From an uncultured Agathobacter sp. (GTDB lineage: Bacteria; Bacillota; Clostridia; Lachnospirales; Lachnospiraceae): a DNA stretch of 64,000 nt. How positions within the stretch are numbered: the stretch's first letter is position 1; the number at the start of each line of letters is the position of its first letter. A model generated the notes under the pieces. It was given only the letters and a program-made list of their open reading frames with translations, was not told the DNA's origin and ran no database searches. The DNA is taken from contig CAKRLV010000009.1 of the NCBI GenBank assembly GCA_934359755.1, forward strand, positions 35,139 to 99,138, written 5' to 3'. Positions 2,226 through 59,507 of the stretch are shown here, piece after piece. Made by a program: the position numbers and the translations under genes.

Positions 2226-5048
2226 CTACAGATTTCTATCCTGCTTCTTTTTCAAAAGTGCCTGGGTATCTATCACCTGTGGAGCACTATCCTTTTTAGC
2301 TGCTTTTGATGCTTTTACCCGTTTTGCAGATTTTTCTGGTGTTGCATTATTTACTGTTTTTGCGGCATTTACTGTTTTTGCAGTATTTACTGTTTTTGCG
2401 GTATTTCTATTTGACTCATTCTTATCTGCAATAGTCTTCTGTTCTGCTGTCTTTGCACGATTCTTTTGGCTGACACATTTTCTTACTACACTTTCAAATG
2501 CATATATCCAGTCCACATGCATACGCCTGAATACAACATCAATCACAAACATAAAAACAGCTATGATAAGAAATATCATCGTAAGGTCATGTCTGGATAC
2601 TGCGCCTTTTAACTTTGTGTTAAAAACTTCATCTGGTTTATCTATATATTTACCTGATACCTGATTGACAAAGTTGCCAATATTGCTCTCCATATCAGCG
2701 TATCTGTATTCCTGTGAATATTGCATTGCTGTTGCTGTATTTAAGCTTTTTTCTATCGTATTTCCTGTCTGCCTGCGCACATTTATACTATAGACACCAG
2801 TCTCTTCAAGTGGTACATCAGCCTGATATTTTCCAGGCGCAACAGCTGTAAGCTTTACCTGTGTCTGATTGCCGTCCTCATCAGTAACAACCGCCTCTAC
2901 TTTCGTATCCGCCGTATACTCGTCCGTATCATAAGTAATTACCGCAGAAGATGCCTCCTGTTTTACCTCTAAAGTATCATCTCCCAGTGCATCATCATAT
3001 ATAGTCCAGTCTATTATATTGCGCCACAGGTTGGCGTAGTTCTGCCACCCTGCGAAATTTGCAGTCCACTGATTAGTTCCATCACTCGTCCATGCAGCTG
3101 TATGCCCAAGTCCATACTGCCAGCATGCCAGAATGGGATCTCCTTTATCTGATTCAAGCAGTACTTTCGCAGTCTGCTTTGGCGTTGTGGCAATATATCC
3201 AAGCAGGCTTGGTGAGCCATCATCGAAGACTCCTTTTAAAATATCGTGTGTACTTACGATAGCTGGTACAAATTCCTCATTTATAAGATATTCCTGGGTT
3301 GACAGATAAACTTCCTGTGCAAAAATTCTTGGAAGTGCAGTTCCCGCATCTGAATAGTAATATCTTCCGTTACATTGTTCTGCCAGTTCTTTTAGCATCT
3401 GTGAATCTGCATCCTGTCCTACAGCAACTGTAGAAAGTGTTATATTATCTTTTTCTATCTGGTCTACCAGTTCAGAATACTCTCGATATCCGTCCTGTCC
3501 ATCCGTGAGCAGAACTATATGTTTTATGGCTGCATCCGATTTTGCAAGAGTCTCCTCTGCATGTGCAATCGCTGGATATATACTTGTTCCACCACCGCTT
3601 CTTATGTCTGCTATATTCTGCTCAATCGAATCAATATCTGCTGCACTTTGTAATTTGACTGCCCATGAATACCTATCGTCAAATGCAAGTACACCAACCT
3701 CATCAATCTCCCTTAAAGAAGATAGCGAGTTAATTGCTGCCTGCTTTGCCACATCAAGACATGTAATTCCGCCGCCCACTGTCGAACCAGCTTCCATACT
3801 TCCTGAATGGTCAATTACCATCATCATTGCAATCTTCGGAATCTGCTTGTCACCTTCAAGTTCCATACTCACCGGAAGTACTTCCTCAAGCGGTGAGTTC
3901 TTATAATTTCCAAGTGCGTAACTGTTTGTTCCGCCAATCACTGCAAGTCCACCCGCATAATCCTTCACATAGGTCTCAAGTGTATCCATGAACCCTTCAC
4001 GCAGATCATCCGCATACACATCAAGCATGACTACAGACTGATACCTGAGCATATCAGAAATTGTCCCTGGAACTCCTGATGGCGAAACAACCTCGTAATC
4101 ATAGTTGCACGACTTAAGAATTTCCTGAAATAAAAGACTCTCATCCTTCATTCCTTCCACAAGTAGTATTTTTGCTGGTGCGCATACCTTTGTAAACGCG
4201 CTATAAGTGTTATTGACAGATACAGTGTCCTTGTCGCTTTCTACCACAACTCTATAACTTTTTATGCCGCTTTCCACTCCCTGGTCTGAGAAGACAAGTT
4301 TATTGTTCCCTTTCTGGAGTTTGACATCTTTTTTCCCTTTTAATGTTCTTCCTGAATAAAGGGAAACGCTCGCATTAGTCGCATCTGTTGCATATATATC
4401 AACGTTCACGTCGAATTTATCTCCCTCAGATATAGACTCTGGAAGATCCACGCTGCTGACATATACCTCATCTGACACACTGCTGTCAAAGCTTTTTATT
4501 TTAAGCTCTATCTGCGCTCCGGCCACTGATGATGCAATATCGGCTGCACTGCCCTCATTCTCCGCTCCATCTGTAAGCAGAACCAATCTCCTTGCACTGC
4601 CATCTGGAAAAAGTGCCATTGCCGTAGTAATCGCCTGTTCTATATTAGTAGCTGTACCAACCACTTTTGACTGCACCTCGGTAAAAGCCTTTTTATCGGA
4701 TACAAATTGTTCTATCTTCGCCTGCGCACCAAACACTACGATTCCTGCATTATTCTTGTCCGGCATCTTAGAAATAGCATCCTGTACATACTCTACTTCC
4801 GCCTGCCAGTTCGTCTTCATGCTATCGGACATATCTACAAGAAAAACTGTTGTTGTGACATCACTTTTTCTATGGATACTCGGTCCTGAAAGTGCCATTA
4901 CTGCCAGAATTATCACAATACTTCTTATTATGATTTCTCCTATGATTCTGCTATTTTTCTGACGATGAAAAAGTCGAATCGCTGTAATAAGTATTATCAT
5001 TATGGGTATTAGAACCAGTACCCACGGCTTTGCAAATTCCAGTGTCAT
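2226..5048 (-). CDS. Large membrane-anchored protein with two von Willebrand factor A (vWA) domains (BatB-like) and a basic repetitive C-terminal tail
   Basis: N-terminal TM segment, then MIDAS-type motifs VFLVDMSDSM and MMMVIDHSGSM. Start set at the internal MTLEF (5048), which is preceded by AAGGAG, rather than the ORF-track start at 5090. The C-terminal tail contains TAKTVN repeats. Confidence 0.7.
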   Translation of the reverse strand: MTLEFAKPWVLVLIPIMIILITAIRLFHRQKNSRIIGEIIIRSIVIILAVMALSGPSIHRKSDVTTTVFLVDMSDSMKTNWQAEVEYVQDAISKMPDKNNAGIVVFGAQAKIEQFVSDKKAFTEVQSKVVGTATNIEQAITTAMALFPDGSARRLVLLTDGAENEGSAADIASSVAGAQIELKIKSFDSSVSDEVYVSSVDLPESISEGDKFDVNVDIYATDATNASVSLYSGRTLKGKKDVKLQKGNNKLVFSDQGVESGIKSYRVVVESDKDTVSVNNTYSAFTKVCAPAKILLVEGMKDESLLFQEILKSCNYDYEVVSPSGVPGTISDMLRYQSVVMLDVYADDLREGFMDTLETYVKDYAGGLAVIGGTNSYALGNYKNSPLEEVLPVSMELEGDKQIPKIAMMMVIDHSGSMEAGSTVGGGITCLDVAKQAAINSLSSLREIDEVGVLAFDDRYSWAVKLQSAADIDSIEQNIADIRSGGGTSIYPAIAHAEETLAKSDAAIKHIVLLTDGQDGYREYSELVDQIEKDNITLSTVAVGQDADSQMLKELAEQCNGRYYYSDAGTALPRIFAQEVYLSTQEYLINEEFVPAIVSTHDILKGVFDDGSPSLLGYIATTPKQTAKVLLESDKGDPILACWQYGLGHTAAWTSDGTNQWTANFAGWQNYANLWRNIIDWTIYDDALGDDTLEVKQEASSAVITYDTDEYTADTKVEAVVTDEDGNQTQVKLTAVAPGKYQADVPLEETGVYSINVRRQTGNTIEKSLNTATAMQYSQEYRYADMESNIGNFVNQVSGKYIDKPDEVFNTKLKGAVSRHDLTMIFLIIAVFMFVIDVVFRRMHVDWIYAFESVVRKCVSQKNRAKTAEQKTIADKNESNRNTAKTVNTAKTVNAAKTVNNATPEKSAKRVKASKAAKKDSAPQVIDTQALLKKKQDRNL

Positions 5049-14670: not shown

Positions 14671-14892
14671 ATCTTTTCCCTTTCATTTTTAATTTCTATT
14701 TAAGTAGTGGCTCGTAATGAGGTAATTTTAGTATTCTGAGGGGATGGGACTTAGTGCTGTGAATATAATCAAGGATGTGGCTATTGTATTTTTTGTGCGC
14801 TCCAAGTCCTCGTGTTAAGATACTCTAAATAATTCAATTTAGAATATCTATAAGTGACGTGTCGCTCATATTCGCCGTCCTGGCTCAGTGAA

Positions 14893-15242
14893 TCTTTACA
14901 GGATTTGCATTCTTCGCACTTCACAACCTGAAATTGCTTTGCACTACACAATGTATCTGTCGGAGAGCATGTATGTGTTCCGAAGAAAACAAATACGGAC
15001 TACACCGAGGCTCCGCTACGTATGGCAAACACAATAACGTAGCAAGCAACAAAAATCTATCCTTAATCAGGCTCGGGGTTAATTCCGTATTTTTTTCTGA
15101 GGAATATCGTACATGCTATGCCGACATCCAACACACCCGAAGTGCAAAGCACTACAAACCTCAAAGTGCAAAGCTTTACAAAACTCAAAGTGCAAAGCAC
15201 TACAAACCTCAAAGTGCGAAGCTACCACTCATGTAAACAGGA
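14893..15242 (+). mobile_element. MITE-like intergenic element, copy A (about 350 bp), with terminal inverted repeats and internal roughly 24-bp tandem repeats
   Basis: Left end TTTACAGGATTTGCATTCTTCGCACTT and right end AAGTGCGAAGCTACCACTCATGTAAACAGG are inverted repeats of each other. The body is about 90% identical to the reverse complement of 52007-52332. Internal repeats are AAAGTGCAAAGCACTACAAACCTC-like units (x4). Confidence 0.7.
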
Positions 15243-17349: not shown

Positions 17350-17461
17350 ATATGATTAAAGAGGTCAAAAGGTATCATCGATACACATAGTAATCTGATT
17401 AATCACAATGAGAGGCAAATACCTTTTGACTCTCATATCAAAATATATAAAGGAGGTTCAC

Positions 17462-21989: not shown

Positions 21990-22219
21990 GGTCGCCCCTC
22001 TAAATGTTATACTCTTACTCTTATATGTTGCTATTTATTTTTTTATTTCTTGCTTCTTATACTCTTGCTTCCCACTTTTTATTTATGATATTAAGGTCAA
22101 AAGGTATTTGCCCTCTCATATGTGATTAATCAGATATATAATAAGGACTACTTGAAAAACAAGCAGCCCGTGCCCCAGAGCTTTCGCTCTCACCAATCTA
22201 TGATTGATGTGCCAAGGAA

Positions 22220-22293
22220 TCGGAATGACGTGATTCGAACACGCGACCCCCTCGTCCCGAACGAGGTGCTCTACCAAACTGAGCCACATTCCG
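22220..22293 (-). tRNA. tRNA-Pro (anticodon CGG)
   Basis: Cloverleaf CGGAATG/CATTCCG acceptor stem, D arm GCTCAGTTTGGTAGAGC, anticodon arm CCTCG-TTCGGGA-CGAGG, T arm GCGTG-TTCGAAT-CACGT. CCA is not encoded. Confidence 0.85.
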
Positions 22294-22521
22294 AAATTAA
22301 CAGCATATACATTATAACACCTTAGGACTAGAATTTCTATATCAGTATGCCTTTTTTTTTCTATAAATCAATGATATTATGTTACTGTTTAAACACAAGC
22401 CTGGCACCTCGCTGTCAAGCCATGCGCCATAGAGCTAATTGTTGAGTGATATTATGATATGAGAGCCAAAAGGTATTTTGCCCCCTTAAACGGCTTGTAG
22501 ATTATTAATGGAGGAATATAT

Positions 22522-49532: not shown

Positions 49533-49705
49533 TTTTCACGGTCATAACTTTCTATATGACAGTTGTTTTTCACAGTCATGACTTTCTATATGACAGTTGT
49601 TTTTTACGGTCATGACTTTCTATATGACCTCTATATGACAGTTGTTTTTCACGGTCATGACTTTCTATATGACAGTTGTTTTTCACGGTCATGACTTTCT
49701 ATTTT
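49533..49705. repeat. Five roughly 35-bp direct tandem repeats
   Basis: GACAGTTGTTTTTCACGGTCATGACTTTCTATAT x5 with small variants. Confidence 0.85.
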
Positions 49706-51102
49706 TCATCCGTATTGCTTACATATACACCTCTGCTCTTATCACCTTCTGGGTTCTTTCCGAACTCATAATCATTGCCTGGCAAAATGGCATTTAGCAG
49801 GATTCCTGCAATCGCAGCTATTGCAAGGGCTGTAAGTGTGATTGATGTTCCGGCTATTTCAAATGTAAGACCATTCGAGAAACCAAGTCCACATACAAAT
49901 ATAACACCTGCAATAATGAGGTTACGTGATTTTGTCAAGTCAACCTTGTTTTCTACAACATTTCTAACTCCAATTGCTGAAATCATTCCATAAAGCATAA
50001 ATGATACTCCACCAATTATAGCTGTTGGCATTGTTGAAATTATTGCTGAAAATTTAGGAATGAATGAAAGTACAATTGCAAATACAGCTGCAATTCTGAT
50101 TACAATTGGATCATATACTTTCGATAACTCTAACACTCCTGTGTTTTCTCCATATGTTGTATTCGCTGGTCCGCCAATCAATCCTGAAAGTGATGTTGCA
50201 AGTCCGTCTCCAAGAAGCGTTCTGTGAAGTCCAGGCTCTGCCAAAAAGTTCTTTCCTACTGTCGCAGATATAGCTGACATATCACCGATATGCTCCATCA
50301 TCGCTGCGATTGCGATTGGTGCCATAACAAGGATCGCAGTAAAATCAAATTTGCACAACTGGAACTGTGGCAATCCGACGATTCCTGCGTCAGCGACCGC
50401 CTTGAAATTCAGGATAGCACTTCCATCTGCGTTTAGCATTCCACATGCATTAAAAATCACTGCACACACATATGAGATGATAACGCCCATGAGAATCGGG
50501 ATGATTTTAAATAATCCTTTTCCCCAGATATTGAAAATAATAATTACTCCTAGTGCAATAATTGCCAGAAGCCAATTGTTTGATGCATTTGAAACTGCAG
50601 ATGGTGCAAGTGAAAGTCCAATACATATAATGATTGGTCCTGTAACTACAGGTGGCAAAAACTTCATAACACGGTTTACACCAGCCAGTTTAATAATCAA
50701 AGCTAAAATAAAATACAGCAAACCAGCAACTACAATTCCACCACACATATATGCAGCTCTATCATTTGCAGACATATTTGCATATATTCCAGTATCAAGA
50801 TTTGCAATTGTGAAAAATCCACCCAGAAATGCAAATGATGAACCTAAAAATGCTGGAACCTGTAATTTAGAGCAAAGATGGAATACAAGTGTTCCAAATC
50901 CTGCACAAAATAGTGTAACTGATACTGTAAGGCCTCTGCTTGGAGCCGCTCCTACAGCCTCTGTAAGATATCCTGAAATCAAAATTGGAACAAGTATTGT
51001 TGCTCCAAACATTGCAAACATATGCTGAAGACCTAATATCAGCATTTTGGGAATTCCCAGTGTCTTGGCGTCATAGATTGCGCCTTCTTTTTTTTCATAC
51101 AT
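49699..51102 (-). CDS. NCS2-family uracil/xanthine permease
   Basis: GLQHMFAMFGATILVPIL signature and about 12 TM helices. Start at MYEKKEG (51102) is preceded by AAAGGAG. Confidence 0.85.
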   Translation of the reverse strand: MYEKKEGAIYDAKTLGIPKMLILGLQHMFAMFGATILVPILISGYLTEAVGAAPSRGLTVSVTLFCAGFGTLVFHLCSKLQVPAFLGSSFAFLGGFFTIANLDTGIYANMSANDRAAYMCGGIVVAGLLYFILALIIKLAGVNRVMKFLPPVVTGPIIICIGLSLAPSAVSNASNNWLLAIIALGVIIIFNIWGKGLFKIIPILMGVIISYVCAVIFNACGMLNADGSAILNFKAVADAGIVGLPQFQLCKFDFTAILVMAPIAIAAMMEHIGDMSAISATVGKNFLAEPGLHRTLLGDGLATSLSGLIGGPANTTYGENTGVLELSKVYDPIVIRIAAVFAIVLSFIPKFSAIISTMPTAIIGGVSFMLYGMISAIGVRNVVENKVDLTKSRNLIIAGVIFVCGLGFSNGLTFEIAGTSITLTALAIAAIAGILLNAILPGNDYEFGKNPEGDKSRGVYVSNTDEK

Positions 51103-51982
51103 AATATTCTTTCTCCTTTTTATATATATCAGGTCGTCTATCCCTGAAAAGCCCCCAGCTTTTACGCTCTTTTTCAAACTCATCAAGATCAAATTTGTGC
51201 AATATAAATCCTTCTGTGACTCTGTCCATCTCTTCAACTACTTCGCCTGTAGCATCTGTTATAAAAGAGGAACCATAAAATGTCAGTGCAGAACTCTGGT
51301 TTCCATTTTCGCTGCATGGTTCAACCGTCTCCGTTCCAACTCTGTTTGCTGCAACTACCGGCATCAGATTACAAGCCGCATGACCTGTCATGCACCTTCT
51401 CCAATGTGGCATACTATCACATTCCAAAATAGGTTCACTTCCTATTGCAGTCGGATAAAATAATATCTCTGCGCCCTTTAATGCCATTGCACGCGCGGTC
51501 TCAGGAAACCACTGGTCCCAGCATATTCCAACACCAATTGTTCCATATTTAGTTTTAAAGGCTTTAAATCCTGTATCTCCAGGTGTAAAGTAAAATTTTT
51601 CCTGATAATAATGATCATCTGGGATATGCGTCTTTCTGTAGATTCCCAGCACCTCTCCATCAGCATCTACAACTGCCACTGTATTAAATAGCTGTCTGTT
51701 ATCCCCAGCCTCATAAAAGCTTACAGGAATAACCACTCCAAGTTCTTTTGCCAGCACTCTCATACTCTGTACTGCTTCATTTTCGTCAAGTGGCTTTGCA
51801 TATTCATAATACTCATAACGTCTTTCCTGACAAAAGTACTGCCTTTCAAACAACTCCGATGGAAGTATTATCTGAGCGCCCTGACTAGCGGCTTCTCTTA
51901 TAAGTTTTGAGGCTTTTTCGATATTTTCTTTTACATTTCTGCTGCAGCTCATCTGTATTGCTGCTACTGTGACCTCTCTCAT
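51095..51982 (-). CDS. aguB: N-carbamoylputrescine amidase (carbon-nitrogen hydrolase family)
   Basis: CN-hydrolase motifs (E...K...C catalytic triad context: IGVGICWDQWFPE). Polyamine-gene context. Confidence 0.8.
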   Translation of the reverse strand: MREVTVAAIQMSCSRNVKENIEKASKLIREAASQGAQIILPSELFERQYFCQERRYEYYEYAKPLDENEAVQSMRVLAKELGVVIPVSFYEAGDNRQLFNTVAVVDADGEVLGIYRKTHIPDDHYYQEKFYFTPGDTGFKAFKTKYGTIGVGICWDQWFPETARAMALKGAEILFYPTAIGSEPILECDSMPHWRRCMTGHAACNLMPVVAANRVGTETVEPCSENGNQSSALTFYGSSFITDATGEVVEEMDRVTEGFILHKFDLDEFEKERKSWGLFRDRRPDIYKKEKEYYV

Positions 51983-52006: not shown

Positions 52007-52332
52007 CTCGTTTACATAATTTGTGTTTTCGAACTTTTTGGGGGCTTGTAATGCTTTGCACTTTGGGGGCTTGTAATGCTTTGCACTTTGGGTGTATGGA
52101 CGTCGGCATAGCATGTACGATATTCCTCTGAAAAAAATACGAAGTTAACCCCGAGCCTGATTACAGATAGGATACCACAATTTGTCACATTATTATGTTT
52201 GCTATATATAGCGGAGCCTCGGTGTAGTCCGTATTTGTTTTCTTCGGAACACATACATACTCTCCGACATATACATCGTGAGTGCAAAGCAATTCAGGCT
52301 GTGAAGTGCGATGCCACAAATCATGTAAACAG
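52007..52332 (-). mobile_element. MITE-like element copy B, inverted relative to copy A, inserted between aguB and aguA
   Basis: Terminal inverted repeats CTCGTTTACATAATTTG ... CAAATCATGTAAACAGG. About 90% identical to the reverse complement of 14893-15242. Internal GGGGGCTTGTAATGCTTTGCACTTT x2 tandem repeat. Confidence 0.7.
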
Positions 52333-52335
52333 GAA

Positions 52336-53466
52336 TCAAATCGGTATTTGCTGTGTAATACAGTGAATATTTCCACCGCCCACAATTATATCCCGTGCGA
52401 AAATCGGATACACCTTCCTGTCAGGGAAAAGTCCTCCTATGATTTCAACAGCTTTTTCATCCATCTCATCCCCGAACTGTGGCACAAGCACTCCGCCATT
52501 TGTAATATAGAAATTCACATAACTTGCGGCAAGTCTCTCACCTGCCTCTCTCTCATCCTCGCCTTCTTCAAATACGAATCCTGCCAGTTCATGTTCTGTG
52601 ATACATACCGGCTTCCTTGGAATCGGGACTTTATGAACGACCAGCTTTCTGCCTCTTGCATCTGTTACTTTTTCCAGAACGGCTATATCTGCTGCCGACA
52701 TTTTGTATTGTGGATCACTCTCATCATCTGTCCATGCAAGTGCCACATGTCCAGGTTCGGTAAATGCACATATGTTGTCAACATGTTCGTTTGTCTCGTC
52801 ATTATATATGCCATATGGTATCCATATTATTTTCTTTGCACCAAGATAGTCCTTTAATTTCTGTTCGATTTCTTCTTTAGATAAAGATGGATTGCGTCCT
52901 TTACTAAGTAGACAGCTTTCTGTCACAATTACCGTTCCTTCTCCATCTGTGTGTATTGCTCCGCCTTCCAGCACAAACGGATGTGCATCATAAACATCAT
53001 ATCCCGTCTCTTCGCAGAATGTCGATGCTACCTTATCATCTTTTTGCCAGCTGGCATACAAACCATCAAATTCTCCGCCCCAGGCATTGAACTGCCAGTC
53101 TATTCCACGCACATCGCCCATTCCATTTATGGCAAATGTAGGTCCGACATCTCTTGCCCACGCATCATCGGATTCCATCTCTATATAATTTATTGGAAAT
53201 TCACATTTATATTTTCCAGATTGGGCAAGCACCTCTATAATCTCTCTTGCATTGTCAATTACATCGGATTCCGCCAGCACGTATACCTGCTCTGATTCAG
53301 CAATCGCACATATTACATTGGCAAATGCTTCCCTCGCCTTTTTTGCTCCGTATATCCATGAGCCGGGTCTTTTAGGCCAGATAATGATTGTTCCTCTATG
53401 CAGTTCATATTCTGCTGGCATATAAAATCCATCTTCGCTAGGACAGCCTGTTTTTAAAATCTTCAT
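52336..53466 (-). CDS. aguA: Agmatine deiminase
   Basis: Porphyranase/PAD-type agmatine deiminase motifs (MPAEYE..., GGNIHCITQQ). Start at MKIL (53466) is preceded by AGGAGA. The ORF-track start at 53499 is further upstream. Confidence 0.8.
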   Translation of the reverse strand: MKILKTGCPSEDGFYMPAEYELHRGTIIIWPKRPGSWIYGAKKAREAFANVICAIAESEQVYVLAESDVIDNAREIIEVLAQSGKYKCEFPINYIEMESDDAWARDVGPTFAINGMGDVRGIDWQFNAWGGEFDGLYASWQKDDKVASTFCEETGYDVYDAHPFVLEGGAIHTDGEGTVIVTESCLLSKGRNPSLSKEEIEQKLKDYLGAKKIIWIPYGIYNDETNEHVDNICAFTEPGHVALAWTDDESDPQYKMSAADIAVLEKVTDARGRKLVVHKVPIPRKPVCITEHELAGFVFEEGEDEREAGERLAASYVNFYITNGGVLVPQFGDEMDEKAVEIIGGLFPDRKVYPIFARDIIVGGGNIHCITQQIPI

Positions 53467-54655
53467 ACCCGAATCTCCTGATAACCTTACACTCGCCATC
53501 TGCCTCCATAACTGCTATATCCGGAAGCGGCATTCCGTTAAATGTATTATTTTTCACCATTGAATAAATCGCCATATCGCAGAAAGTGAGCCTGTCGCCT
53601 ATCTTTATCTCTTTGTCAAATGAATAATCTCCAATCACATCTCCCGCAAGGCACGTACATGATGATAATCTGTAAGTGTACTTTTTCTCACCTGCTTCTC
53701 CGCTATCTCTAAGTGGCGGACGATACGGCATTTCCAAAACATCTGGCATATGACATGCTGCCGATGTATCTAAAATGAGGATATTTATCTCTCCATTTTT
53801 TACTATATCAAGTACTGTAGTAACCAGATATCCTGCATTAAGTGCAACGGCCTCACCCGGTTCAAGATATATTTCAAGATTGTACTTTTCCTGCATATGC
53901 CTGATGCATTTTTCTAAGCGTGATATGTCGTAATCTTCTCTTGTAATATGATGACCGCCACCCATATTGAGCCATCTGACATCATATAATAAATCACCAA
54001 ATTTTTCCTCAACCGCCGCAAGGGTCTTTTCCAGATCATCCGAATTCTGCTCGCAAAGCGTATGAAAATGCAAGCCATCTATTTTTGACAGATCCAGCCC
54101 GTTTTCAAGCGCTTTGTCAAGCTCAGCCCTTGTAATTCCCAGTCTTGAGCCAGCTCCGCATGGATCATATATCTCATGTCCCTCCTGCGTTGAACACTCA
54201 GGGTTTATCCGAATCCCTACACTTACAATATCGCCACCATCCACCTGTCCATCTTTTCCCACACGTTTTGAAATAAGCTGTAATTTCTTTGCCGCCTCAA
54301 TTTTAGGCTGATGATACAGATACTGCGACACCGAGTTAAAAACTATATGATCGCATATACGAACAAGTTCATCCATTTCTTTCGGCAGAAATGCTGGACA
54401 GAATACATGGTTTTCTTTACCCATTTCCTCATGCGCAAGTCTTGCCTCATACAGTCCGCTTGCTGTGGTTCCACTTAAATATTGACCTATAAGTGGATAT
54501 TCATAAAAGGCACTAAACGCTTTCTGTGCAAGAAGAATCTTCGCTCCCGTCCTTGTCATCACACCGTTTAAAATTTTCAGATTATCCGTCAGCCTGCCCT
54601 CATCTATCACATAGCAGGGTGTTTCGAGTTCATCAATCCTCATCTGCTTCTCCAA
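53438..54655 (-). CDS. nspC: Carboxynorspermidine/carboxyspermidine decarboxylase
   Basis: Length and motifs of CANSDC (YVIDEGRL, GGGHH). Confidence 0.75.
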   Translation of the reverse strand: MEKQMRIDELETPCYVIDEGRLTDNLKILNGVMTRTGAKILLAQKAFSAFYEYPLIGQYLSGTTASGLYEARLAHEEMGKENHVFCPAFLPKEMDELVRICDHIVFNSVSQYLYHQPKIEAAKKLQLISKRVGKDGQVDGGDIVSVGIRINPECSTQEGHEIYDPCGAGSRLGITRAELDKALENGLDLSKIDGLHFHTLCEQNSDDLEKTLAAVEEKFGDLLYDVRWLNMGGGHHITREDYDISRLEKCIRHMQEKYNLEIYLEPGEAVALNAGYLVTTVLDIVKNGEINILILDTSAACHMPDVLEMPYRPPLRDSGEAGEKKYTYRLSSCTCLAGDVIGDYSFDKEIKIGDRLTFCDMAIYSMVKNNTFNGMPLPDIAVMEADGECKVIRRFGYEDFKNRLS

Positions 54656-54679
54656 ATTTATATTAAATTACCACATATG

Positions 54680-54810
54680 TTCTATAGTTATTTTGGGATT
54701 CTCTATAGCATTTTTTAATGCTCCATAGTTTTTTGAATGATCTATAGTTATTTTTGAATTCTCCATAGTTATTTTTGAAGTCTCTATAACTAATTCTAAC
54801 TATTTTGCAT
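54680..54810. repeat. Six degenerate roughly 21-bp tandem repeats (TCTATAGTTATTTTTGAATTC-like)
   Basis: Visible as repeated CTATAGTTATTTT units between nspC and the dehydrogenase gene. Confidence 0.75.
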
Positions 54811-54882
54811 TTAAATCTCATATGCCATATTATTAGAATTTATTGTACACTTTGAAAACAAGTCTAGTTACATTTCTGTATC

Positions 54883-56178
54883 CTAGTCCATATGCACAGA
54901 CTCATCAGCCGTCTTATAACAATCCACAAGTTCCGGATTCTCAACTACTTTCCATGGAAGTCCAAATTTATTAAGCGCATCCATGTATGGATCTGGATCC
55001 ATCTCCTCAAGATTAAATACGCCCGGCTTTTTCCACAATCCTGTCACAACCATCATTGAACCAATCATAGCCGGTACACCTGTTGTGTATGATATTGCCT
55101 GTGATTCAACCTCTTTGTAACATTCCTGATGATCACATACATTATAAATATAGATAGATTTTTCTTTTCCATCTTTGATTCCTGTAAAAATACATCCAAT
55201 GTTTGTCTTTCCTACAGTACGTGGTCCAAGTGATGCAGGATCTGGTAAAAGTTCTTTAAGAAGCTGAATTGGAACTATCTCTTTTCCATCTACCATTACA
55301 GGATCTGTTCTTAACATTCCAACATTTTCAAGACATTTCATATGTGTGAGGTAACTCTGTCCAAATGTCATAAAGAATCTGATTCTCTTGATTCCTGGAA
55401 TATTTTTAGCAAGCGATTCTATCTCTTCATGATGAAGCAGATACATGTCTTTTTCTCCAACCTGGTCAAAGTTGTACTGCGCGCGCCACTCCATTGGCTC
55501 TGTCTCTACCCAGTGTCCATCTGCCCAGTATGAACCGTTTGCAGACACTTCACGGAGATTTATCTCTGGATTGAAGTTCGTCGCGAATGGATATCCATGG
55601 TCGCCACCATTACAATCGAGAATATCAATTGTATGAATCTCATCAAAATAATGTTTTAATGCATACGCTGAGAAAACAGAAGTTACACCTGGATCAAATC
55701 CGCTTCCGAGAATAGCTGTAAGCCCTGCTTCTTTGAACTTCTCCTGATATGCCCACTGCCATGAATAATCAAAGTACGCTGTAAATCCAAGTTCCCTGCA
55801 TCTCTTCTCATATATCGCACGCCACTGTGGATCCTCTGTGTCCTCACATTCATAGTTAGCTGTATCAATATAATCTACACCACATGCAAGACATGCATCC
55901 ATAATAGTAAGATCCTGATATGGAAGTGCAACATTAAGCACAGCGTCTGGTTTATATGAATTAATAAGTTCCTTGAGTTCTTCTACATTATCCGCATCCA
56001 CTTTTGCAGTCTCAATCCTGGTTGTAGTAGTTCCTTCAAGTTTAGCCTTCAAATCATCACATTTTGACTTTGTGCGGCTCGCAATCATTATCTCCGTAAA
56101 AACTTCACTGTTCTGACAGCATTTTCTGATAGCTACAGATGCAACGCCTCCGCATCCAATAATAAGTAATCTGCTCAT
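54883..56178 (-). CDS. Carboxynorspermidine/carboxyspermidine dehydrogenase (saccharopine dehydrogenase family)
   Basis: MSRLLIIGCGGVASVAIRK Rossmann motif. Saccharopine dehydrogenase-like sequence. Confidence 0.75.
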   Translation of the reverse strand: MSRLLIIGCGGVASVAIRKCCQNSEVFTEIMIASRTKSKCDDLKAKLEGTTTTRIETAKVDADNVEELKELINSYKPDAVLNVALPYQDLTIMDACLACGVDYIDTANYECEDTEDPQWRAIYEKRCRELGFTAYFDYSWQWAYQEKFKEAGLTAILGSGFDPGVTSVFSAYALKHYFDEIHTIDILDCNGGDHGYPFATNFNPEINLREVSANGSYWADGHWVETEPMEWRAQYNFDQVGEKDMYLLHHEEIESLAKNIPGIKRIRFFMTFGQSYLTHMKCLENVGMLRTDPVMVDGKEIVPIQLLKELLPDPASLGPRTVGKTNIGCIFTGIKDGKEKSIYIYNVCDHQECYKEVESQAISYTTGVPAMIGSMMVVTGLWKKPGVFNLEEMDPDPYMDALNKFGLPWKVVENPELVDCYKTADESVHMD

Positions 56179-56195
56179 TTTTATCCCTCCTGATT

Positions 56196-57053
56196 TTAAT
56201 TGTTTTCCTCTTCTTCCAATAAATCTTCAACATATCGCGGCAGCATAAATGCCCCCCTATGCAAGTTAGTTGTATAGTACCACGTCTTAAGTCCAAGTGC
56301 TTCCCATTTTGCAGGATTCAAATCATTCAATGGATGATATTTCTTCGATGCAAAACCAAACAGCCAGTATCCCGACGGGCACGTAGGAATATGTGCCTGA
56401 TATACTCGGCTTATTGGAAACGACTTATATACTTTTCTATGCATTTTCCTGCACTCGACCTCATCCTCATCATAGAACGGACTTCCATGCTGATACACCA
56501 TAACACCATCTTCTTTAAGTGCCTTGTAGCAGCTTCCATAAAATTCTTTTGTAAAAAGTCCTTCTGTATGTCCCAGAGGATCTGTTGAATCATTGATAAT
56601 CAAATCGTATTCATCATTTTTCCTTCTGAGGAATCTAAGACCATCATCATAGTGCATTGAAATCCTTGGATCATCAAGTCCACACGCCACTTCAGGAAAA
56701 AAATTTCTACACACATCGACAAACATCTTGTCCGTTTCAACCACATCAATCTGTTCGATTGATGGATAATTGATAAGTTCCTTGGCAACACCGCCGTCAC
56801 CACCACCGATTATAAGCACTTTTTTCACATTAGGGTGAACCGCCATCGGTACGTGCGTAACCATCTCATCATATATGAACTCATCTGTATCCGAAAAAAC
56901 AATCTCACCATCTAACGCGACCATTTTTCCAAATTCATATGATTTAAAAACTTCTATTTTCTGGTAATCACTCTGTCCCGAAAAAAGCTGTTCTTCTATT
57001 CTGACATCCAGCCTGACATTCGATGTGTGATATTCCGAAAACCACATATGCAT
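56196..57053 (-). CDS. speE: Polyamine aminopropyltransferase (spermidine synthase)
   Basis: VLIIGGGDGGVAKE and DSTDP motifs. Confidence 0.85.
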   Translation of the reverse strand: MHMWFSEYHTSNVRLDVRIEEQLFSGQSDYQKIEVFKSYEFGKMVALDGEIVFSDTDEFIYDEMVTHVPMAVHPNVKKVLIIGGGDGGVAKELINYPSIEQIDVVETDKMFVDVCRNFFPEVACGLDDPRISMHYDDGLRFLRRKNDEYDLIINDSTDPLGHTEGLFTKEFYGSCYKALKEDGVMVYQHGSPFYDEDEVECRKMHRKVYKSFPISRVYQAHIPTCPSGYWLFGFASKKYHPLNDLNPAKWEALGLKTWYYTTNLHRGAFMLPRYVEDLLEEEENN

Positions 57054-57129
57054 ATCATTCTACCTCCACTGTATTTTAATGAACTCCCAATATCTTTGTC
57101 ATTTAGCGTCGGATTTAAGGGTGCTCATA

Positions 57130-58590
57130 TCAGACCTCTGTATCTGCAAGCACCTGCAGATATTCAACAGCGGGATCTTCCGTTCCCTGCATTGAACATC
57201 CCTTTTCCTTTGCATATAAAATATATTCTGCAATCTCTTTTGTGATAAGCTCACCTGGTGCAAGAATAGGAATTCCCGGCGGATAACACATCACAAACTC
57301 TCCGCTTATACAGCCAACCGAATCCTTAATCTGTACTGATTTTTTTTCTGAATAAAATGCTTTCTGTGGTGACACTGCCACCTGCGGATTAATGTATTCC
57401 CCTGATAAAAGTCCTGTTTTATCCTTGCTGTACAATCTCTTTATATCCTCGAGCGCACCTACAAGTCTTTCTATATCCTGTATTCTGTCACCAATTGATA
57501 TATATGCAAGTATATTACAGATATCACCAAACTCTATCTGTATGTCATATTCGTCACGAAGCAGATCATATACTTCAATTCCAGCCAGTCCTATATCAAG
57601 CGTATAAATGGATAACTTCGTCACATCATAATCATATATGCTTGTTCCATTTACCAGATCCCGCCCATAAGCATAATATCCACCAATCGAATTAATTTCC
57701 TGCCTTGCATACTCCGACATCTGTGCCACTTTTTCAAAAGATTCTGCTCCACGCAATGCCAGATTTCTTCTCGAAATATCAAGACTTGACAAAAGCAGAT
57801 ACGAGGCGCTTGTAGTCTGTGTGAGATTAATTATCTGCCTCACATAATCTGCATTTACATTCTTTCCCGTAAGGAGAATCGAACTCTGCGTCAGGCTTCC
57901 TCCTGATTTGTGCATTGAAATTGCCGACATATCTGCACCTGCTGCCATTCCCGATATAGGAAGATTTCTTCCAAAATAAAGATGCGTACCATGTGCCTCA
58001 TCTGTGAGAACTTTCATTCCTTTTGCATGAGCTGCTTTTACAATTGACTTTAAATCTGAACATATTCCATAGTAAGTAGGATTGTTGACAAGTACTGCCT
58101 TTGCATCGGGGTTCTCTTCAATTGCTTTCTCTACCTGATTTACTTCCATCCCAAGAGAAATTCCAAGCTTTGCATTCATCTGTGGATTCACATATATAGG
58201 AATTGCGCCACATAAAACTAACGCATTGAGTGCGCTCTTGTGTACATTTCTTGGAAGTATAATCTTGTCACCTGCCTTACATGTTGACAAAATCATCGCC
58301 TGTACTGCCGATGTCGTTCCTCCAACCATAAGAAAAGCGTTCTCCGCGCCAAATGCATCTGCTGTAAGCTCCTCCGCTTCTCTGATAACAGAAACCGGGT
58401 GGCACAGATTATCGAGAGGCTTCATAGAGTTTACATCAAGGCCTACACACTTTTCTCCTAATAGCTGCACTAATTCTGGATTTCCTCTGCCTCTTTTGTG
58501 TCCGGGCACATCAAAAGGAACCACTCTCTTTTTCTTAAACACCTCAAGTGCCTCGTATATCGGCGCACGCTGCTGTCTTTTTATATCCAT
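57130..58590 (-). CDS. speA: Orn/Lys/Arg decarboxylase family PLP enzyme (arginine decarboxylase SpeA-type in Firmicutes)
   Basis: SMHKSGGSL lysine-PLP motif. 486 aa, fold-I decarboxylase. Confidence 0.75.
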   Translation of the reverse strand: MDIKRQQRAPIYEALEVFKKKRVVPFDVPGHKRGRGNPELVQLLGEKCVGLDVNSMKPLDNLCHPVSVIREAEELTADAFGAENAFLMVGGTTSAVQAMILSTCKAGDKIILPRNVHKSALNALVLCGAIPIYVNPQMNAKLGISLGMEVNQVEKAIEENPDAKAVLVNNPTYYGICSDLKSIVKAAHAKGMKVLTDEAHGTHLYFGRNLPISGMAAGADMSAISMHKSGGSLTQSSILLTGKNVNADYVRQIINLTQTTSASYLLLSSLDISRRNLALRGAESFEKVAQMSEYARQEINSIGGYYAYGRDLVNGTSIYDYDVTKLSIYTLDIGLAGIEVYDLLRDEYDIQIEFGDICNILAYISIGDRIQDIERLVGALEDIKRLYSKDKTGLLSGEYINPQVAVSPQKAFYSEKKSVQIKDSVGCISGEFVMCYPPGIPILAPGELITKEIAEYILYAKEKGCSMQGTEDPAVEYLQVLADTEV

Positions 58591-58707
58591 TATTTATTAC
58601 TCTCCTCTGTGATTCTAAATATAAAAGAGTCTCCCTGCGACTCCCTGCGAAGCCTGATGCAAACTACTTGTGAGAGTCTTTACTACTCTACGCGCAACCA
58701 TGTTGTA

Positions 58708-58740
58708 AAAAAAAGATGATGCCCTCGCATCATCTTTGTT
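58708..58740 (-). terminator. Rho-independent terminator upstream of speA promoter
   Basis: On the minus strand: AAAGATGATGCGAGGGCATCATCTTTTTTTT. Confidence 0.7.
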
Positions 58741-59507
58741 TAATATTCTTCACATGTCTCAAGCTTAAAAGTTGCCTTTTCGTTTTATTGACCGTTTCAC
58801 AAGATGATGTGCAATTAGCACTGATTATTAAGTAATCAACTTATAAAATTTGAGCTTCTAACTCAATCAATAATGTGGTCTCCCACGCTCGGCAACCGCC
58901 CCGCCTGTCCGTATGGGCTTAACTTCTGTACTATCCAGAAGTGGGCTATATGTTTTAAACTGACTTATCGTCGAATTGTTCTAACATACTTATAAAATCG
59001 TAACACACACGAATATGTTATGCAAGATTTTTTATATATTCTTCCGCAAAATTGTTGTTTATCGCGCTAGCGTTATTTACGTAGTGGCTCGAAATGAGCT
59101 TCCAACCAATCGAATCAGGGCAACCGCTATATACTAAATTGGCATGAGCGATAGTATTATCTTGATTTGCACCAATACCTTTGAAAAGATTTGATGGCTG
59201 ATAGTATATTTTAAGAGCGATTCCGCAACGACGTAGAGTATCTTAATAATTCGCTCGTAATCAGCGGGAAATTGCCACGGACGGCAATTTCAGCGAACAT
59301 GAGACAGGACGTCGAATGTGAGCGACGCGTCACTTATCGATAAACTTATCGAATTATTTAGATACTCAAGGAAGTGAGGACCTGGCGAATAAAATATACT
59401 ATCAGCCATCAAATTAAATTCACAACACAAAATAGCAAATCAAAATAAATACTATCGCTCATGCTTCACAAAGTAAAAAGGTTGCCCGAACCTCGACAAA
59501 CAGCAAT

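Follow-up and report, generated by a model that had tools for sequence, protein, structure and literature searches.

The window analysed in this study, the whole 64,000-nt stretch of DNA (GC content, 38.6%), contains two mutually inverted, non-coding copies of an intergenic element, here called X, which on balance is probably an uncatalogued structured element, most likely an RNA, carrying in the window copies a lineage-specific palindromic extension. The fold of X, the strand that folds, its occurrence in multiple copies, its non-coding nature and its insertion and allele exchange were established by the comparisons given below. The 90% cluster of ribosomal protein L13 includes Roseburia inulinivorans, which places the window no more closely than among Roseburia/Agathobacter-like Lachnospiraceae, and 24 kb of the window had no megablast match among plasmid records. 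In the human colon, A. rectalis (Agathobacter rectalis) and related species rank with the most abundant bacteria, and A. rectalis is culturable. X, at 215 nt, combines more than 30 covarying pairs with invariant loops and has several paralogues in each genome, which makes it a strong candidate for a functional RNA that has not been studied before.

Copy A was located at 14895-15241 (+) and copy B at 52007-52333 (-), in agreement with the initial annotation, which had described an inverted pair of MITE-like elements at these places. The homology between the two copies extends from TTTACA to TGTAAAC(A/G), and the flanking DNA is unrelated. The identity of about 90% given in that annotation holds for the core, where the ungapped arms 14947-15045/52182-52280 (99 nt) and 15057-15130/52097-52170 (74 nt) are complementary at 90% and 92%, respectively, and does not hold for the whole element, which is 84% identical over the padded alignment and 85% identical over 288 nt by BLAST. 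Both copies are indeed intergenic. Copy A is situated between an 818-aa ORF (end 14670) and a response regulator (start 15386) that is paired with a histidine kinase, and copy B lies between aguB (51095-51982) and aguA (52336-53499), on their strand, the products of which are of the carbamoylputrescine amidase type (CN_hydrolase) and the agmatine deiminase type (PAD_porph), respectively. As had been reported, no transposase was present within or adjoining either copy in the window, and a scan of the window with covariance model R1 gave no third copy of X. The features of the two copies and of the neighbouring RNAs are listed in Table 1.

Table 1. Positions of the features of X in the window and of TwoAYGGAY RNAs (RF01731) in the window and in strain contigs
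Feature	Position	Strand	Remarks
Copy A, outer left arm (TTTACAGGATTTGCATTCTTCGCACTT)	14895-14921	+	Pairs with 15212-15241; holds a second copy of the P1 5' strand (CTTCGCAC)
Copy A, CACAACCTGAAA motif, 5' side	14922-14935	+	Elsewhere in family X, the 3' half of the P1-P2 loop
Copy A, core X unit	14936-15150	+	Model R1, 170 bits forward and 48 bits reverse
Copy A, P1 5' strand (GCTTTGCAC)	14936-14944	+	
Copy A, P1 3' strand (GTGCAAAGC)	15142-15150	+	
Copy A, invariant loop segment (TGTGTTCCGAAGAAAA)	14974-14989	+	
Copy A, invariant loop segment (CTGAGGAATAT)	15097-15107	+	
Copy A, tandem repeat, 24 nt x 3.5	15140-15222	+	Unit is loop motif plus P1 3' strand
Copy A, outer right arm (AAGTGCGAAGCTACCACTCATGTAAACAGG)	15212-15241	+	
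Copy B, outer left arm (CCTGTTTACATGATTTGTGGCATCGCACTT)	52304-52333	-	Starts directly after the aguA stop codon
Copy B, core X unit	52078-52290	-	Model R1, 174.9 bits forward and 46 bits reverse
Copy B, tandem repeat, 25 nt x 2.2	52037-52092	-	Content as in copy A; period not divisible by 3
Copy B, outer right arm	52007-52036	-	25 nt upstream of the aguB start codon
Truncated half of TwoAYGGAY RNA abutting copy A	14817-14890	-	Intact in other strains; outside X
TwoAYGGAY RNA, window	59221-59382	+	
TwoAYGGAY RNA, contig L070	2516-2676		
TwoAYGGAY RNA, contig L073	2516-2676		
TwoAYGGAY RNA, contig L085	1678-1840		

Folding of the whole element gave z-scores against dinucleotide shuffles of -9.0 for copy A and -8.2 for copy B, and of -5.4 for the opposite strand of copy A. 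X forms a single long irregular helix of six stems with a variable tip that, by inspection, apparently consists of two small hairpins between the conserved GUUCCAU and CUAUCC. In an alignment of 22 sequences made with MAFFT only, RNAalifold identified 48 pairs, 26 of which were compensatory. In the model-based alignment of 40 sequences, standard pairs occupied 96.1% of the cells and double-sided changes occurred in 31 of the 48 pairs, a number reached by none of 500 shuffles, and the covariation score was 0.354 versus 0.178 ± 0.006 for the shuffles. An alignment fitted to the model, as these 40 sequences were, favours structure, and the result from MAFFT only agrees with it. Furthermore, when the partners were slid by one to three columns, pairing fell to 36-47% and 7-11 double-changed pairs were left. 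The structured-RNA alternative that the initial annotation had left open is thus strongly supported by covariation, and also by strand asymmetry. Among the 40 sequences, G·U and U·G pairs numbered 140, against 27 for A·C and C·A. The loci scored with the covariance model gave 140-220 bits forward versus 28-97 bits reverse. This excess of G·U over A·C and the forward scores, about three times the reverse ones, indicate that one defined strand folds. Some of the differences among A. rectalis strains in X at the map-DUF4317 locus also create G·U pairs.

The invariant internal loops are purine-rich and comprise 5'-GUGUUCC-GAAG-AAAA against UUUUUC-WGA-GGAAUAU, in which the helix GUGUUCC/GGAAUAU never varies, and a CU/UGAC loop further up the helix. 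To judge from the facing bases, tandem G·A pairs could arise between 5'-GAAG and 5'-C(U/A)GA. Because the patterns used for collection required TTCCGAAGAAA and GAGGAATAT, part of the invariance of these strings is a matter of ascertainment. Outside this species, X lacks the outer inverted repeats, and its ends are a 9-bp helix in which the sequence varies through compensatory substitutions; the loops of the interior, in contrast, do not vary. At the level of sequence comparison, such conservation reads as the signature of a strand-specific folded RNA or single-stranded DNA and not as that of ends bound by a transposase.

The X unit is about 215 nt long and extends from a 9-nt 5' strand (consensus GCTTCGCAC) through to its complement, GTGCGAAGC. 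BLAST against plasmid records gave a single, distant homologue, in an A. rectalis entry listed by PLSDB as an unnamed plasmid. The loops of this homologue are those of the window copies (GGAGAGCATG..TGTGTTCCGAAGAAAA ... TTTTTCTGAGGAATAT....CATGCTATGCCG), and the stems between them differ yet stay complementary. A scan of one genome per species with the pattern TTCCGAAGAAAA-N(92-122)-GAGGAATAT returned 68 stretches, about 20 of them true members of X; by the titles of their records, the genomes concerned were three of Agathobacter/'Lachnobacterium' with 4-5 members each, one of Acutalibacteraceae with 3, and two other MAGs. In metagenomes, at least 120 loci matched the pattern; model R1 gave 140-220 bits for 79 of the first 80, almost all of which were from the human gut. 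With nhmmer, at least 159 non-overlapping copies, 156 of them complete, were identified on the fetched loci; among the copies listed, the complete ones fell into 15 sequence clusters at 88% identity or more, that is, about 15 diverged paralogue groups in Agathobacter and other gut Firmicutes, and the paralogues outside the window were strongly diverged from one another. Further copies of X exist in relatives, so that the finding named initially as pointing to a local segmental duplication, a lack of other copies together with loss of the terminal repeats, does not apply. The window subtype is known from two loci, and its pattern had no match in the metagenome_contigs collection. No match to X was obtained by BLAST in phage records, and two patterns run against IMG/VR yielded either no match or chance matches that failed the covariance model. 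The neighbours of X are ordinary core genes (map, nadC, rsgA, prfB, metG, metK, greA, dus, secA, clpB and those for transketolase, sugar transport and two-component systems).

X corresponds to no Rfam family at the gathering threshold. In searches of the window and six X loci with Rfam 15 at gathering and permissive thresholds, only generic matches to long-hairpin miRNA precursors far below threshold were obtained, and a sub-threshold TwoAYGGAY match of 26 bits at 14817-14965 rests on the truncated neighbour of copy A, not on X. Nothing on X was found in the literature searched on its loop sequences, on MITEs of Lachnospiraceae and on structured RNAs of E. rectale. In addition, X is absent from the first 200 of the 408 supplements of the catalogue of Fremin and Bhatt (PMC8040213).

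The inverted ends of about 30 bp noted initially are present in imperfect form, with arms of about 27-30 bp across both copies. Those of copy B (52010-52036/52304-52330) are 27 nt long and 81% complementary, and those of copy A are gapped. The end 17-mer CCTGTTTACATGATTTG, with up to three mismatches, has three matches in the window, all of them element ends, versus 0.37 expected. As each copy folds end to end as a rod, these "terminal inverted repeats" are the outermost part of an element-long palindrome; they consist of P1, the basal helix, and of a further outer helix seen only in this species. The internal tandem repeats were also recovered, with Tandem Repeats Finder (Table 1), and their pattern has 5 matches in the window versus 0.01 expected; they reiterate the P1 3' strand and the loop motif next to it. 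Three additions set the window subtype apart from the X unit: on the left, a further P1-like 5' strand with a CACAACCTGAAA motif; on the right, the loop motif and P1 3' strand repeated two to five times in tandem (2.2-3.5 units in the window copies and up to 5 in strains); and an outermost TTTACATGA / TCATGTAAA pair. In the window and the 209 fetched loci, the outermost 13-mer is restricted to this species, at these two loci, and the outer arms of the window copies are conserved in sequence on both arms rather than as covarying pairs. We incline to the view that both loci hold a lineage-specific extended version of X. Some strains of A. rectalis have a tandem duplication of 14 nt in the P1 3' region, and its resemblance to the window repeats suggests that the 3' end of X is prone to slippage in general.

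Comparison of strains revealed that X-containing spacers are exchanged. An identical AguB is encoded on seven contigs, and X lies between aguA and aguB in one only (L075). Five of the seven have a different insert of about 580 nt with a bona fide TwoAYGGAY RNA (87 bits), and in the remaining one (L073) truA is joined to the TwoAYGGAY-containing insert. The X allele and the TwoAYGGAY allele take the place of one identical stretch, which extends from the aguA stop codon to about 30 nt short of the aguB start. In a related species, whose aguA and aguB are 78-80% identical in nucleotide sequence, there is no spacer at all: the genes share 4 nt, and the C-terminus of AguA is 11 residues longer, with 16 residues after the shared HCITQQ versus 5 in the window. 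It follows that the aguA-aguB spacer, whether it holds X or TwoAYGGAY, was inserted in this lineage. At the other locus, the spacer upstream of the response regulator ranges from 711 to 1399 nt in ten contigs, and in strains it contains an intact TwoAYGGAY (104 bits in L085) and one or two tandem copies of X, whereas in the window form the 3' half of TwoAYGGAY and the linker have been lost by deletion. An insertion of copy A into TwoAYGGAY was considered and rejected, since other strains have an intact TwoAYGGAY followed by X and the window form is therefore a deletion derivative. The tandem X copies have about 35 nt upstream of them in common, a pattern in line with duplication and not with transposition.

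In A. rectalis, X was present between map and the DUF4317 gene in all 11 strains. In three of the 11, the terminator and the P1 5' strand have been deleted between the short direct repeats GGTAAGTA and CATAAGTA, with the rest of X intact, which indicates that the full fold is dispensable at some loci. The map-DUF4317 spacer of A. rectalis (L215-L224, about 3376-3912) is a mosaic of a terminator, an optional GC-rich palindrome of about 75 nt, X and an optional 14-nt tandem duplication. Taken locus by locus, the strain record, including that of the 11 A. rectalis strains, shows X to be long-lived and seldom moving.

In this species, the TwoAYGGAY RNAs themselves (RF01731, 87-104 bits) act like inserts that can be exchanged between intergenic regions. 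Like X, TwoAYGGAY is a long hairpin; it is an orphan RNA motif of gut Clostridia and uses the same intergenic slots as X here, as the alternative allele between aguA and aguB and as the element adjoining X upstream of the response regulator. However, its sequence and structure are different, and X fails its model. This sharing of slots by X and an orphan motif shows something of how these intergenic spacers change. In L073 (1651-3000, compared with the window at about 52340-59500), truA is directly joined to the TwoAYGGAY spacer and aguB, and a polyamine cluster of about 6.9 kb is missing; this loss fits recombination between two TwoAYGGAY copies. Repeats of this kind apparently mediated the loss of the cluster of about 7 kb in this one strain, which would link orphan RNA motifs to genome plasticity. 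In the window, the polyamine gene cluster is headed by an SpF59/ldcC RNA (58889-58947, minus strand; RF02440, 61.8 bits).

The preferred explanation of these data is that X is selected, most likely, as a folded RNA. The RNA would be transcribed together with its neighbours, as might be the case for copy B inside the aguA-aguB transcription unit, or alone, and the invariant loops would serve as a docking site for a conserved cellular factor. Locally, the outcome could be processing of the transcript, a change in its stability or an uncoupling of the flanking genes, and X would spread or turn over rarely, through insertion, recombination or slippage. We infer that X is transcribed, has a protein partner and affects neighbouring genes; most likely, it would act at the RNA level, as a module for protein binding or for the direction of processing. 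At sites between co-directional genes, about 5 copies of X are co-oriented and about 4 antisense, and co-transcription is therefore not a general rule. A cis-regulatory leader or riboswitch of the 5'-leader type was rejected because the orientation of X to its neighbours is mixed. As a bolder and distinctly tentative proposal, X may represent an unrecognised class of functional RNA of the dominant gut Firmicutes, in which the loops would bind a dedicated protein or catalyse a reaction such as self-cleavage, and which would be semi-mobile and compete with TwoAYGGAY for slots. If so, the two would be members of a wider system of exchangeable RNA cassettes.

An alternative at the RNA level is that the copies are genes for trans-acting small RNAs with their own promoters, which act on mRNAs or sequester a protein and were dispersed by gene duplication. 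Diverged paralogues at conserved orthologous loci in three Agathobacter-type genomes are compatible with this, and at four loci X is antisense to both neighbours, so that expression there would need a promoter of its own; by inspection, a TAAAAT/TATAAAT/TAGAAT box stands 1-7 nt before P1 in several copies. However, neither a consistent -35/-10 pair nor an intrinsic terminator after P1 was found, and across the X loci no convincing conserved promoter or terminator emerged from scans, which were uninformative, or from inspection. For a trans-acting small RNA, about 15 paralogue groups would be an unusually high number. Moreover, in some strains a deletion has removed the P1 5' strand with all that precedes it, and X is still conserved directly after the map stop; copy B, for its part, fills a spacer within an operon whose genes overlap in the related species. 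Small RNA genes of this kind are accordingly an unlikely account of X.

The interpretation put forward initially, a classical MITE, would make X a deletion derivative of an insertion sequence, with ends of about 30 bp bound by a transposase encoded elsewhere and moved by cut and paste. Part of that description stands. X is small, non-coding and palindromic, it is present in more than one copy, and its DNA has undergone insertion or exchange. On all four arms, the sequence of the inverted ends, TTTACATGAnTnG...TCGCACTT, is conserved, the flanks of the two copies are unrelated, and the aguA/aguB junction is empty in the related species. Bacterial MITEs such as Correia/NEMIS, bcr1 and Nezha are similarly small, have terminal inverted repeats without an ORF, and insert between or next to genes. 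The mechanism by transposase and terminal repeats, on the other hand, was not borne out. MITEs have target-site duplications, ends of a parent insertion sequence and near-identical copies, none of which was demonstrated for X. No direct repeat was seen at either copy, and at the sole empty site, in a species about 79% identical, the spacer is too diverged to fix the junction. No transposase or integrase was encoded among the neighbours at about 20 X loci. The outer ends occur nowhere else in the window or the 209 loci and are missing from members outside this species, and the ends are the least conserved part of X, with an interior that is more conserved and compensatory changes, the reverse of the MITE pattern. 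The extra copies at the response-regulator locus are tandem and share upstream flank, as expected from duplication, and X is fixed at one locus in all 11 A. rectalis strains. A MITE origin is therefore doubtful, and the case serves as a warning for annotation that, viewed from a single genome, long structured RNAs can resemble MITEs.

Similarly doubtful is a single-stranded DNA element of the REP/REPIN or IS200/IS605 PATE type, whose folded hairpin would be recognised by a single-copy HUH (Y1) transposase such as a RAYT. With REP/REPIN and RAYT systems X shares a hairpin-forming, strand-specific nature and a long-lived, vertically inherited existence with slow duplication. The G·T-tolerant pairing, the conservation of structure rather than of stem sequence, the small number of rarely duplicated copies and the proneness of the 3' end to tandem reiteration would also fit. 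Nevertheless, the 215-nt multi-loop rod of X greatly exceeds a REP (20-40 nt) or a REPIN (about 100 nt) and has no GTAG-type 5' motif, and no RAYT, TnpA or HUH-type gene was seen among the neighbours of X copies, whereas REP/REPIN elements have the motif and a flanked RAYT gene. The window copies, in addition, lie on opposite strands within 37 kb, so that their orientation is not tied to the direction of replication.

Two further readings are far less probable. An inverton, in which a site-specific recombinase flips the segment between the inverted repeats and controls the downstream genes, would agree with inverted repeats around an intergenic segment of about 300 bp directly upstream of genes and with a weak match to an outward-facing promoter where copy A ends on the right, but it is very improbable, given that all 20 strain copies have one and the same orientation relative to their flanks, that pairing is conserved along the whole element, beyond the ends, and that a recombinase gene is absent nearby. 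A small protein, encoded by the 90-100-codon frame MxCxxxCICRRxCMCSEENKYGLHRGSA noted initially or by a 50-codon frame through the tandem repeats, is hardly credible and was rejected: the frame is open in window copies A and B (100 and 91 codons) and is not conserved in the family, being interrupted in most of the 40 members, where the frame through CSEE is usually open for just 12-36 codons, and cut to 29 codons in strain L085 at the locus of copy A, while indels of +1, +2 and +3 nt follow GAAGAAA, the tandem unit of copy B is 25 nt and substitutions track base-pairing, not codons.

Returning to X as a structured element, its behaviour is closest to that of intergenic palindromes of the ERIC, BOX and REPIN types and not to that of a transposase-driven MITE. 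ERIC (IRU) sequences of Enterobacteria are imperfect intergenic palindromes of moderate copy number that occupy orthologous sites in related species and maintain a hairpin, and we know of no transposase for them. X resembles them in being a palindrome, in its intergenic position, in its orthologous sites and in the hairpin that is kept. ERIC, however, is about 127 bp long, belongs to Proteobacteria and is unrelated in sequence, whereas X is about 215 nt long, belongs to Clostridia and has internal loops that are asymmetric and invariant, with a tip of two hairpins that varies. The BOX elements of Streptococcus pneumoniae (and also RUP and SPRITE) are non-coding and intergenic, combine pairing end modules with variable tandem sub-repeats and form stable RNA hairpins. 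The window copies of X and their strain counterparts, with their varying numbers of tandem units, have a comparable modular build. Nonetheless, the two are unrelated in sequence, the module repeated in X comes from the basal helix, being its 3' strand, and the core of X is conserved across genera with compensatory changes.

Other repeats were observed in the window. At 49517-49742, five to six tandem 34-nt repeats (AAAGTCATGACCGTGAAAAACAACTGTCATATAG) stand between a permease stop and the consensus TTGACA-17-TATAAT promoter of rplM-rpsI, and each unit resembles the -35 region of that promoter. Non-coding duplicates with a terminator-like hairpin are present at 43690-43987 and 46877-47285, about 3.2-3.3 kb apart; they are 77-94% identical piecewise, the two longest pieces being 89% and 94% identical. 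An intergenic 24-nt tandem repeat (AATAATATGAGTGTGTTTGGCTTA, 3-4 units) is located at 42359-42472. Finally, the 30-nt sequence AAATACCTTTTGACTCTCATATCAAAATAT at 17414-17446, 22083-22112 and 22449-22478 recurs, inverted, at three intergenic sites near a tRNA gene (22220-22293), and these sites may be a shared promoter or operator.
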